IMG/VR virus record: IMGVR_UViG_3300042691_021876
Location: 42,535 to 106,534 of that record
DNA from: a virus
DNA length: 64,000 nucleotides
Strand: one strand, 5' to 3'
Shown: positions 21,001 through 27,000 of the stretch, piece after piece
How the letters are laid out: each line of letters begins with the position of its first letter
How positions within the stretch are numbered: position 1 is the stretch's first letter
Program-made: the position numbers

Positions 21001-24000
21001 CACTCCTTGAACTATGCGTTTACCTGTAGATTTTGAAACATATTCACCTATGATATAAACCATTGGACGTTTATCGTAAAAATCCAACACGTCAGCACCT
21101 TCAGGCATATACTGGTAAGTGTAAACTCGCCCAGGCATAAAGAATTTTAATCCTTTTGCTTTAAAACGTTCTGTTTGCTCAATAATCCAATAATTTTGAA
21201 ACGGATTCTCGATATACTTGTCATTAAAGTATTCGTAAGTAGTTTTTCTTAATTCTGCTTTATTTGGATTCCTGTCATACCTATCAAAAAAATCTGTCAT
21301 CGCGTTACTTTAAATAGGAAATCTTCTGTTACAATAATAAATTTATAACCTATAGATTCAGCATGTGCTTTAGCAGCTGAAAATTTTGCAGTATTAATGA
21401 TAAATGTTTTAGCTGCATAGTTAAAGTTCTTTAACTTTTGCATTGTTTGGATTCCTTCAAACACTGGTTTCTTTAAAGATTCTTCAGGTTTAACTTCTAC
21501 TAGATAATCGATTTCTTGACCGTCTTTAATACCTCTCATGTAAAAGTCAATGTAATAGTCATGTTCCTTTCCATCTATAGGACTTATGTACTTGATAGGA
21601 AATGGCTCTGATGACCACTTCAAGACATTTGTTGAATCATCACAATACCTACAAAACTTATATTCCCAGGACGAGCGATAGATGATCTTTGTGGGATCAC
21701 CTATATACTTGTCTGGGTTATTAAGAGTGTAATAGCCTTGGCGGAATTTGCTTTTGGCCGTAGGCTTGTTTGATTTTATATCAGATGCCATAGAAATTTT
21801 CGTTGTTGATAGAAACTTGGTCAAGCGAACTTAATGGGTGAATCTTTCTCCAACCTTTTGCGAAACCGTTCTTTAACATTTGCGTGTAATAAGCAAAAGG
21901 ATATTTCGATTTCTCTGGATTATAACTTTTCCAGTAACGGATTACATCCATCATTGCAAAAGCAATACAATCTTTTCTGTCTTCTTCATCTTTATATCGA
22001 AATTTTTTCGACATTTCTTTTGCCATCCTTTGGAATATTTCGATAGCTCTTGGAGTTAATTCTCCTTTTTCTAATGATAACAGAACTTCTTTTTTAAGTT
22101 CTTCGGGTTCTACGTAATTTGCCATTTATTATTTGTTGATTATAACAGATGCACCGTCATTGGTTTCGTCTTCGAGTGCTTTTACGTAAGAGGATAATTC
22201 AGCAATACATTTATCAAGTGATTCATGTGAAAGAGATGAATTATCTTTCACAAATAATTGTAATTCTTCAAGTGATGAAACGATTTCATTTATACGTTCG
22301 GTTAATCTATCGATAACAGCTCCAACCTTATCAGGAGTATTTTCTCCGGTTTTAGGGTTTGAGTTTACATCCATTTCAGAATTATATACACCAGTTTCAA
22401 AAAGTTCTGTAGGTTCTACCAAGTTCTTCTTGATTTTAAGACGAGTGTCACCATGTATTACTTCAACTTCTTCATCATCACCTTTACTTGTAAAGTCAAG
22501 AGCCTTAATCATAATCTCTGTGTCAGGAGCTAATCCTGAGTTAACAGCGTCTTGACGAATTTTGCCCTTTACATACTCTTTGGCCTCTCGAACTCCAACC
22601 GATCCGCCGTCTTGCTGAGTAATCAGCTCGAGGTCATTTCCCGGTTTAGCTTGAGAGGCCTTTTTAGTTACTTCTATTTCAGTAGGATTTACAATTTTTG
22701 TAGATCCGTCTTCAAATTCTATAGTAAGAGTGCGATCAGCTTGGTTAGTACCCGTTACTCTTGCTTTTTTTTTAAATGTTCAACTTCATCGTTTACATTT
22801 GCACCAACACCTTCAGAGATTGTTGTAAAATCTCTTAGTTCTTGTTGCACATTAGCATATGATTCTTTAAGTGTAGAGATTTCATCGTTAATTGCTTCAT
22901 AAATGTTTGTCATTTCTTCAGACTCACGAACAGCAGGATTTGCTATTGCATCAATCTTGGCTTTACGTTCTTCAAGATAGTTAATTGCCTCAAGGATTTC
23001 TGCTTTCTTAGCCTCAAGTTCTTTAATTTGTTTTTCGTCTACGTTAAGTAAGTCAGCGAAAGTGTTTCCTAAGTCATAGTTCATAAACTCTAATACTTCA
23101 TTACGAGATTGTGTTCCGTTACAGTCAGCAACGAAAACATTCTCTGACATTAAAGTATTAATTTTGTTCATATGTATTTTGTCACCAGTGCGGAAGATAT
23201 CTACACGACGGTGAGGATTTGAGTTTGAGAAGATTGATTTTACAAAATCAAGTTCGAAGATAGAATCCCAGTTTTCAACAATTTTATAAACAGAAGCTAA
23301 AACTTCTCTTTCTTCAATTCTGAAGATTCCAGAGTTTAAGTAAATTTTTTCAAAATCAGAATTAGTAACTGCTTTACCGTTTACTTTTACAGATGGTGCA
23401 CCGTTTTCTTCAATAATTTCTACTTTCTTATCACGAGAAAATATTTTAACTCCGCTTTCAGATACTTCAACATTTGATTGAATAAGATAGTTTGCTAACC
23501 ATTCAAAGTTTTCAGGAAGTAATCCTTTATCAGTATCAGAAATAACATTTACAGATTCACCTTCTTTAACAAAGATTTTTCCAAATACTGCAAAATATTC
23601 TTTACCTTCATTAACATATACTGGAGAGTAAACATTTTTGAAGTATGCATCGCTGCTGTTTGCTTTAATTTGGAAACCGTTAGCAGATTCAGCAACTATA
23701 TTGTATAATTGTTTGATTCCTGGGTCAAAAGACAACTTGTTAAGAGCTTCCATCAGTTTAGCTCTATTAGTAGCAGTTCTTTGATTAAGGTAAGCATCGA
23801 TTGGTTTTTCTAAACCAGCCATAAGATATCCAGAACTTGTAGCTTTTGCTTCAGCAACTGCTTTGTAAATTTTAATATCTTCTGCGTATTTAGAGGTATT
23901 TTCTTTAAGAATGTTTAATTGCTCCTTAACAACTGGAGACCATTCAAATTGTGATAGTGCTTCAACAGCCATATCAGCCGCAATCCATTCAGGAACTTCC

Positions 24001-27000
24001 TGAAGACGGCGTAAGTTTTCTATAATGTAACGAACAGAAACGTGTTTAGACAAATCGTCTTCCATTACTGCCGTGATTGCATTACGAACCCCAAGGTTAT
24101 TCATTCCTGTTAAACGGTTCTCAACATTGATGAACTCCTGCACAACCGGTTCATCCACAGATGCAATAGCTTCTATTAATGAATTAGCAATAGTTTCTTC
24201 AATAAAACTTCTTTGGCTATACGGAGAAGTTGCTGAAATGCTTCCGCTAAACTTGTTAATTGCTTCTGAACATGCTTCACGAACTTCTGATATTTGTGTA
24301 GCGCCAAGAAGAGCTTCTACTCTTTTCTTAAGATTTGACATTTTCTATTGATATTTTTAATCTATACTATATATTCGCCATCATTAATACATTTTTATCA
24401 TTGTATTTCAAAGATGGCAGTTTGCGGATCAAGTGTATAGTCCCCGTCATTAACGAGAAGTGTACAGTTTTGATCCAGCACAATCCAATTATTTATCGCG
24501 TCATGCGATAGGATTTTTGTACCATTTGCTGTACCTGGTCCTTGTATAAAACTATCAAAGTTTACACCAAGAGAAACAAGTTCAGCAACGGTTGGATTTA
24601 AGTTTGTTACTTTAGTTGGGTTAGGACCTAAAGGGTCGGTATCACCTGTAAATGTTGCAGCAGTTAAACAAATTTGAGATTGGACAGGATTCACCTGATT
24701 TTCAATTTTTAGTTCAATGTAATTAACAGGGGTTGGAATAAATCCAGAGCCGGGACTATGAATTGTAAATCCTATTACACGCCCACAACTTACATTTGCA
24801 GAAATTTGTGGCGCAATAAAAGGTGGTGCCCCTGGCGGTGGTTGAATAAGTGGAGAAACATTAATCATTGCTTGATTTGAATAGCCATAACCTCCATCAA
24901 AAATGATTATTCTTTCAACTTCACCATTTGCATTTATGATAGCGCGAGTTTTAGCGCCTTTACCACTGCTATCAGATACATAGGATCTAATAGGATCTTG
25001 TTTAACTAGAGTTTGCGTATTACTAAAAAATGGAATACTCCAATCAAAAGCACCATCATTTTCTGATGAATCTGCAATCATTGTCCAATCATCTTGTCCT
25101 GTAAATCTATAATAGATATTAACTCTTAAAATTGCTCCTGAATTTGTCCAACGAATAGGAAGAGAACTACCTGATAAGTATGTGCCATTTGCAGTAGGAC
25201 TTGTGTATTCAAAAATAACTTGAGTTTCTTCATTTATGATTCCTATATCCATTCCTGGTCCACCTGCTGATGTAATACGATTCCAATTGTTTCTTTCAGT
25301 AGTTGGGTCAATTACTGGCATGTAAGTTTCAACTGCAAGCTGAAACTTGAGTTCAATTTTACTTTCAGTTTGATATGTAAATTCAAAAGTTTTTTCTAAT
25401 CCGTAATCTTCGGGAAACCCTACTTGGCACGGAACTCTAAAACCTTTATAACTTACAGAATAAACTTGAGTCTTATAAAAGGTTTCAATGATTGACTGTT
25501 GAATCTTAAACGCATCAAGATTGGTATCAGCTTCTATAACAACATCAAATTGCATTGCTAATGGAATTGAGTTTAAGAAAGCATTATATGTTTGTAATTG
25601 TCCGTCTATTTCTTTTGCATAACTACCACGAACAAAACGGTGGGTCATTGCTGATGTATTAATTGTATTTGATGTTAAAGTAACAATACCTCTTGGTATT
25701 ACATCATAGTTACCATCCGCATGTTTAGGGTGCACACAATCACTCCATTCTAAAAAGAAATCTTGTAAGAATCGCTCATCACCAGTCATGCTGTAAAAGA
25801 ACGGAACGGTAACTCGGTCAAATGTGTTATCACCTAATACATTATCATATTGTACAACAGTGTTTAGGAGATTAACAAGACCAACTATTACAGCTCTTGA
25901 GTGTACGTTATCTGTATTATACTTGTGAAGAAATTGTCCCATACTTTATATATCATCCAATTTTTTCAACCAATAAGTGGGAAAAACCATTGTTCTTTTG
26001 AATTTCTAAGCGATAATCAAAAATCTCGGTTGGTAATTGACTATGATTAATAACAAATATGTTTAAGTTTAATTCCCTACAAGTTTTATGAAGTACTTTT
26101 AAGATATGATAAATTCCATCAGAATCAATAGATGAAAAGATTTCATCAAGAAAAGTAAGGTTAAGCCCAGCAAAACGAATCTTCATTAAACGGATTAACG
26201 CAATTAGTGTAGCAAAATCAATTTTCTTTCTTTCACCTGTACTTAGCTGTTCTGGAGAAATCTTAAATCCTAAATGTTGTATGTCAACATCAAATTCTTC
26301 ATTAAAGGTTACACGATAATCCATGTTAAGATCAGCCATTACTTTTCGAATTTCAGCATTTAATAATGGAACAATTCTTTTTAGAGCAGATAGTTTTACG
26401 CCCCTGTCTCCAAAGATATCTTCAACGATTTTAAAGAAGTTACCTTTCTTTTCTTCTTCACTCTTTTTAACTAAAGCAGATTGTTTCTTTTCACCAGTAT
26501 CTTTAATAAGTTTTTCTAAAGATTGTGTTTGCGCATCATCAACATTACCATTACTTAATTTTGCTAATTCATTACGTAATGTAGAAATCTGAACTTCAGC
26601 GGCTGTCTTTTTGCCATTCACTTCAGAATACATTGTACGAATTTTAGTTTTCTTTTCAGTTAATTCATCTTGCTTGGTTTTAATCTCTGCCATCAGTTGT
26701 TTAGTAGCATCATTCTTTTCAAGAAAATCCTGTAACATACTTTTGTGATGATCATCGGTTAAATCAGTTTCACAAGTAGGACATTTACCGCTTTCAAATA
26801 AATGGATCTTTTGTGTACAAATTCTTTCATCAGTACGGTGTTCGTCCATTTTACTTGATAGAGTATTTAAAACATTCTGTACTTCTTTTTCTTTTGTGGA
26901 GATTTCTAATAATCTATCCGCTGCTTTTTTAATGAACTCTTGGAATTGTAAAATTTTGGTTTGAAGTTCCGAACGCCTTTCTTCACCTACTGTAATAAGT

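Follow-up and report, generated by a model that had tools for sequence, protein, structure and literature searches.

Here we describe, in a stretch of 64,000 nucleotides from a virus (IMG/VR record IMGVR_UViG_3300042691_021876, positions 42,535 to 106,534 of that record; hereafter the window), a gene of a T4-like phage that appears to be read in two ways. Its first open reading frame (ORF), ORF1, at positions 22755..24341 of the minus strand, encodes a protein of 528 amino acids (aa) and ends shortly after a run of nine A's followed by a G (the A9G tract), from which a second frame, ORF2 (22129..22764, minus strand; 211 codons and a stop), leads on in the -1 frame to a product of 737 aa. Comparison of homologous loci shows that the site, the frame break and the coding capacity of ORF2 are conserved and that the ancestral form of the gene was unsplit. 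The 528-aa and 737-aa isoforms are, on these sequence grounds, very likely real; beyond this, their production, their ratio, the level of the slip and a late role of the protein in the virion or its assembly are what we infer. Slippage of RNA polymerase on the A9 run is put forward as the main route of the frame change, a proposal for which we see the case as evenly balanced. More tentatively, and with rather less confidence in the whole than in this part, the site could be the first example of programmed transcriptional slippage from a late gene of a T4-type phage, a single A9G insertion into the loop of a barrel that was kept across uncultured jumbo myoviruses, with A8, A9 and A10 alleles shifting the ratio of the short to the long form of a fibre or decoration protein. 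A literature search found no report of the ORF1/ORF2 gene or of its frame-change site.

The frame-change site in the window

The 3' end of ORF1 reads CAT TTA AAA AAA AAG CAA GAG TAA. The A run (22773-22765) is exactly nine bases long and the next base, at 22764, is G; the tract as a whole (22764..22773, minus strand) makes up two overlapping in-frame heptamers, A_AAA_AAA and A_AAA_AAG. The 0-frame stop TAA that ends the short isoform (22755..22757, minus strand) stands two codons past the site. The -1 frame is closed by a TGA just 5' of the site (22780..22782, minus strand) and is open from there to 22129, i.e., for 216 codons from stop to stop or 211 counted from the G. Its first ATG, at 22512, is codon 85, with neither GTG nor TTG among the 84 codons before it, and a fusion made by shifting to -1 on the run would have 526 + 211 = 737 aa. 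An earlier sequence-only reading of the window had described this ORF end, the overlapping heptamers, the TGA just upstream and a -1 frame that stays open, with no ATG for 84 codons, into an annotated ORF of 127 aa, all of which we find in the sequence; its proposal of a programmed change into the -1 frame that yields forms of 528 and about 737 aa is supported by the comparison of 39 loci and by selection on ORF2.

The weak AAGAGT/ACTCTT stem that had been noted after the site fares differently. It is present in the minimum-free-energy fold 3' of the site (-8.1 kcal/mol), its energy is no better than that of shuffled sequence (z = +0.25), and it is not conserved among homologous loci. Across loci, the folding energy of the 70 nt 3' of the site has z mostly from -1.5 to +0.7 and no common fold was found, nor did an Rfam search match a frameshift element. 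No upstream element resembling a Shine-Dalgarno (SD) sequence is present in the clade of the window, in which AAC GAT GAA GTT GAA CAT precedes the run; the GGTGAT that precedes it in other clades consists of the codons of a conserved Gly-Asp pair.

Conservation of the site and of ORF2

A protein search with ORF1 gave 71 homologous clusters with 29-95% identity, nearly all of 516-555 aa, and in 69 of the 71 the C-terminus is KKK plus 0-3 residues despite differing flanks (HLKKK, NSKKK, FEKKK, VGKKK, VAKKK). At the DNA level, 58 loci were fetched, of which 37 are distinct; two more from a later search, with the same site and ORF2 arrangement, bring the distinct loci to 39 (36-95% aa identity). 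All loci with at least 36% identity carry NNA AAA AAA AAG, a 0-frame stop 0-3 codons on and a -1 ORF2 of 159-255 codons. The codon that precedes KKK ends in A in all loci (TTA, CTA, GAA, GGA or TCA), the -1 reading always opens on a codon with G as its first base, and AAG is always the 0-frame codon. The nucleotides of the tract are invariant in 37/37 distinct loci. Of these 37, 33 have A9 and four have A10, and the run is shorter only in rare A8 alleles, nine being the conserved minimum at the site. A conserved DKK motif within ORF1, taken as a control, uses all four combinations of AAA and AAG, and in the control codon use just 71% of Lys codons are AAA and just 43% of Leu codons have A in the third position. 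As neither the three Lys codons nor the wobble A before them vary at the site, whereas the DKK control is free, the constraint acts on the nucleotides, over ten bases.

The alignment of ORF2 among homologs starts at the first codon after the G. The ratio of non-synonymous to synonymous substitution rates (dN/dS) is 0.05-0.34 in codons 1-80, i.e., in the part that lacks an ATG, and is similar in the remainder, which indicates that ORF2 is under purifying selection from its first codon. Judged by these comparisons, the recurrence of the site together with a -1 ORF2 across 39 distinct loci goes far beyond chance.

Unsplit relatives and the origin of the split

In more distant relatives (23-32% identity), a single ORF of 670-1000 aa includes the modules of ORF2 in frame. 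The clearest is P0075 (673 aa, 31% identity), which is aligned to positions 2-119 of ORF2 by hhalign with a probability of 96.5% and E = 1e-9. Split in the window (...NDEVEHLKKK / ARVTGTN...), the barrel runs on without a break in P0075 (...GDKVKLKNGAIGSVVSVN...), in agreement with the sequence-only reading, which had taken the joined sequence for one barrel. Five further proteins of 750-990 aa match both ORF1 and ORF2, namely P0099, P0120, P0110 and P0115 by BLASTP and P0129, whose match to ORF2 was obtained by profile search only. A search by length for longer, ORF2-bearing fused forms had given none; the profile search later did find them. P0074 (890 aa) shows no significant similarity to ORF2 by BLASTP, and P0025 (737 aa), considered as a natural fusion, was rejected as it is the A8 allele of a subfamily with an insertion. 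The 462-kb uncultured phage LR756500.1 (L063) has a single ORF with a C-terminal motif that resembles, by eye, the second ORF2 module; the homologous ORF is followed by gp55, which means that synteny is conserved. A TnpB/OrfB-like ORF (L063 451-1707) lies directly 5' of the homologous gene in this phage. Weak relatives were also found in Lak megaphages. In an unsplit relative (L056 3520-3532), a run follows the stop codon of the gene itself: in GAA TAA AAA AAA ACA, nine A's span the stop, directly ahead of the next gene.

In a maximum-likelihood tree of 42 proteins, in which P0072 is labelled split from its length alone, the split forms make up one side of a branch with support 100/99, and in the midpoint-rooted tree they nest among the one-ORF forms. 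The split clade spans more than one substitution per site. The position of the split forms on one well-supported branch, together with the one-ORF relatives, indicates a single origin of the A9G tract, within a loop of the barrel of an ancestral single-ORF protein. The sequence-only reading had left it to homologs to tell whether the frame break is genuine: it is conserved in them, and the split clade does not consist of single uninterrupted ORFs.

The route of the frame change

According to the scenario that we favour, ORF1 and ORF2 would be one gene with two readings. Standard decoding would halt two codons past A9G and give 528 aa, and a fraction of the product would carry on in the -1 frame to 737 aa, ORF2 being made only as the C-terminal portion of this long isoform. 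The host RNA polymerase core, starting from a gp55-type late promoter, would slip on the nine-A run and insert one A, and in the mRNAs with the extra A, a subset of the whole, ORF2 would be in frame; a -1 slip of the ribosome on these letters would probably contribute. The extension would complete the small beta-barrel begun by the tail of ORF1; beyond it would come another beta module, the invariant linear motif E-x-GVYNSE...KT-x-EN-x-P and lastly a helical hairpin.

In many bacteria, selection against runs prone to slippage sets in at a length of nine, and a nine-A run is used by Thermus thermophilus dnaX and by insertion sequence (IS) elements (PMC1088944). The lean towards the polymerase comes from three observations: the lack of conserved stimulators, A8 alleles with an intact ORF2, and a genome that avoids long A runs but not A_AAA_AAG. 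On the last point, in-frame A_AAA_AAG occurs nine times in this genome against 8.4 expected, i.e., it is not depleted, and stands within eight other genes, whereas in-frame A_AAA_AAA occurs seven times against 23.7 expected, an approximately threefold depletion; AAG AAA is preferred after a codon that ends in A. Runs of at least nine A's number only two in the whole 106-kb record, each within the last seven codons of an ORF.

The second of these runs lies outside the window, on the coding strand (G000:C1:33640-33648; L065 2641-2649, minus strand), and reads GAA AAA AAA AGT TTG ATT TAA, which closes the ORF of a 316-aa protein that has hydrophobic segments. Just 1 or about 31 codons follow in the other frames, so slippage there would only alter the tail. 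The sole A8 run of the record (window 50867-50874, minus strand) is inside a gene body, that of the ORF at 50319-51026 (GTA AAA AAA ATA).

At the frame-change site, A8 alleles were found in three species-level clusters (P0025, P0175 and P0185). In the P0025 cluster A8 is present in five of six members, from several sources and including a 69-kb contig. In L048, which belongs to this cluster and is the only A8 locus whose DNA was inspected, ORF2 is intact and lies in the +1 frame, which places it out of reach of a -1 ribosomal shift. Taken together, the discriminating evidence leans towards transcriptional slippage on A9, which the sequence-only reading had named as its alternative, over the ribosomal shift.

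Several points weigh against this preference. A9G consists of two in-register heptamers, and programmed ribosomal frameshifting accounts just as well for the nine A's, the G and the register. The position of the 0-frame stop directly after AAG in 12 of the 37 loci also speaks against it. Errors of assembly, or defective genomes that do not persist, could account for the A8 alleles, and the codon-pair test comprises a small sample, 195 Lys-Lys pairs from the single 106-kb record.

The strongest competitor is -1 ribosomal frameshifting of the dnaX type as the main route, in which tRNA-Lys slips back one base from AAA-AAG or AAA-AAA on an unedited A9 mRNA, possibly with the tandem heptamers standing in for RNA stimulators; we consider it a serious, if rather less than probable, explanation. 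The in-frame pair A_AAA_AAA and A_AAA_AAG, the G and the codon register are all invariant in the 37 loci, and the stop closes the 0 frame within three codons. The site also ends in A_AAA_AAG, the strongest known bacterial -1 site and the most shift-prone motif in Escherichia coli (PMC5009743; PMC4066793). Neither a downstream hairpin nor an upstream SD element is conserved, however, and the occurrence of the bare heptamer in frame in eight other genes at the expected frequency implies that it is not very shifty there. The A8 alleles put ORF2 beyond a -1 shift, and descent, along with the A, V or G residue that follows, can account for the register and the G.

A very improbable explanation is switching of the run length at the DNA level, akin to phase variation, where A9 genomes would make the short form only, A10 genomes the long form only, and replication slippage would interconvert them. 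The A8 alleles exist in metagenomes, as does the in-frame fused allele P0089 (...ELSKKK-VKIIAV...), whose relatives are A9. Yet A9 is the assembled state in 39/40 distinct loci and in about 95% of cluster members, P0089 is the one fused allele among more than 100 clusters, and the strong purifying selection on ORF2 in A9 genomes means that its expression from them is required.

Less likely still, ORF2 could be a separate gene with its own internal start (ATG 22512, 127 aa) or be expressed by reinitiation after the ORF1 stop. The 127-aa ORF that starts with ATG does exist in the window, and gene callers annotate such fragments; but the 84 codons before this ATG are conserved and under purifying selection, and ATG, GTG and TTG are all absent around the ORF1 stop. 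The start also varies in position among homologs: annotated ORF2 fragments begin at about ten different positions of the profile (profile search of a library of 1.8 billion proteins), ORF2 is free of Met in three of the 16 loci inspected, and in others Met occurs only after codon 148 or 182. Finally, the barrel spans the junction in the in-frame relatives. Together with sequencing error and pseudogene decay, an independently initiated ORF2 is excluded for practical purposes. Least probable of all, a homopolymer error or a decaying pseudogene, as might be suspected of an error-prone A9 run in a metagenome-derived record, is effectively refuted by the identical frame break in dozens of independent assemblies from several sources, in a clade as divergent as this one.

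Protein architecture and possible function

The AlphaFold2 model of ORF1 (mean predicted local distance difference test score, pLDDT, 82.9) has a helical N-terminal domain (residues 1-218), followed by two beta domains (232-407) and a helical hairpin (429-506), and its tail (511-528) is disordered. The predicted disorder of the last 18 residues would fit the tail being an incomplete domain. The model of ORF2 (mean pLDDT 70) shows small beta modules as well as a disordered stretch, and its C-terminus is a helical hairpin. Within the predicted disordered stretch, residues ~121-144 include the invariant motif E-x-GVYNSE-x-D...N-x-KT-x-EN-x-P, for which no known match was found and which may, going by the model, be a docking peptide.

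Pfam and PHROGs gave no match for ORF1 or ORF2 except one sub-threshold match to adenovirus fibre, and structure searches (Foldseek against PDB, VIA-align) returned generic helical hairpins only. ORF1 has no match to the T4 neck proteins gp13 and gp14 in Pfam, PHROG or PDB searches. The BFVD matches are uncharacterised myovirus proteins only, including those of Tenacibaculum phages PTm1 and pT24; the ESM Atlas search gave no usable match, and a test for internal repeats between ORF1 and ORF2 was negative. The first barrel module of ORF2 occurs in 6-24 tandem copies in five large proteins of 800-2200 aa (P0096, P0104, P0119, P0133 and P0146). It is a matter of speculation that such tandem copies hint at a role in a fibre or in decoration. 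If the proposal is true, the long isoform carries barrel modules that are repeated up to 24 times in other relatives.

Comparison with known recoding systems

The arrangement resembles that of T. thermophilus dnaX, Shigella mxiE/spa13 and the IS elements with nine A's, where a nine-A run in the sense strand likewise gives two products per gene; the likeness extends in Shigella mxiE to slippage being needed for the longer product. In contrast to these cases of slippage, the gene described here is a probable late gene of a T4-like phage, its G and register are invariant, and it is known from sequence alone. In IS elements, 8A and 9A variants of one and the same position have been described (PMC1088944); in that example substitutions change the length of the run, whereas here insertions or deletions do.

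With E. coli dnaX, whose tau and gamma products arise by -1 programmed ribosomal frameshifting, the site shares the heptamer A_AAA_AAG, a nearby stop and isoforms with a common N-terminal body. In E. coli dnaX, an SD-like stimulator precedes the heptamer and a stem-loop follows it, neither of which is conserved at the site studied here; the dnaX shift leads to the shorter product, whereas here the shift leads to the longer one.

In phage T7 gene 10A/10B and other phage structural proteins, some copies acquire small C-terminal beta domains through a -1 change that occurs late in the coding sequence of a late gene. The extension proposed here is of the same kind as in 10A/10B, the slippery sequences are different, and a location in the virion is what we infer in the present case. 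The G/GT gene of phage lambda is also similar in that a conserved -1 frame change occurs in a phage late operon. It lies between the tube and tape measure genes, however, while the present gene lies between the gp15-like and gp55 genes, and its products have ~100-250 aa versus 528 and 737 aa, with no relation in sequence or fold. That the gene is not a tail-assembly chaperone (the sequence-only reading had called it no obvious one) agrees with its neighbours and with the sizes of the ORFs (528 and 211 aa), which do not fit one.

The site would represent an unusually clean and deeply conserved recoding signal outside the tail-chaperone paradigm. Standard gene calling misannotates the locus everywhere: about 70 clusters of 'complete' proteins of 520-555 aa are accompanied by ORF2 fragments from arbitrary starts, and the true long product is absent from databases. 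The unsplit ancestor, the single origin and the run-length alleles make the gene a good system in which to follow the evolution of a two-isoform gene from a one-isoform gene, and the locus could help to tell slippage by the polymerase from that by the ribosome on one set of letters. It also draws attention to a conserved uncharacterised core protein encoded beside gp55, with relatives as far as Lak megaphages and the Tenacibaculum jumbo phages.

Genomic context and candidate late promoters

The source record has 106.5 kb, a GC content of 34.9% and an estimated completeness of 37%, which suggests that the phage is probably a jumbo phage. Every gene in the region around ORF1/ORF2 is on the minus strand. 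In the order of transcription, and as assigned by Pfam and PHROG, an SbcC-like gp46 and a gp15-like tail sheath stabiliser precede ORF1/ORF2, and the gp55 late sigma factor, the gp4 head completion protein, gp2 and the gp20 portal follow. A gp14-like gene, separate from ORF1, is at 8709-10706, and terminase and sheath genes are also located elsewhere in the window. The gp15-like protein (24398-25942) has 514 aa, of which only the first ~208 residues match the 245-position Pfam model of T4 gp15 (PF16724), the long C-terminal half having no match to it.

About 25 nt 5' of the ATG of ORF1, the sequence GAATATATAG (24367..24376, minus strand) is a candidate late-promoter core, named from its motif likeness. 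Similar AT-rich motifs (GAATATATA or GATATATA) stand 5' of the ORF1, sheath, gp14-like, portal and gp15-like genes; as a putative late-promoter core, the motif would fit ORF1 being a late gene. A scan for sigma-70 promoters and terminators between ORF1 and ORF2 found nothing above chance. The sequence GAWATATA has nine matches in the window (754-57309), a total not above chance, and all nine are on the coding (minus) strand, several of them just 5' of genes, e.g., the sheath gene (6198-6205) and the gp15-like gene (25947-25954); this strand bias and these positions suggest a late-promoter core. Elsewhere in the window, at 12892-16543, PHROG matches reveal a nicotinamide adenine dinucleotide (NAD) salvage block with NAMPT-like, Prs-like and phosphatase/macro-like genes.

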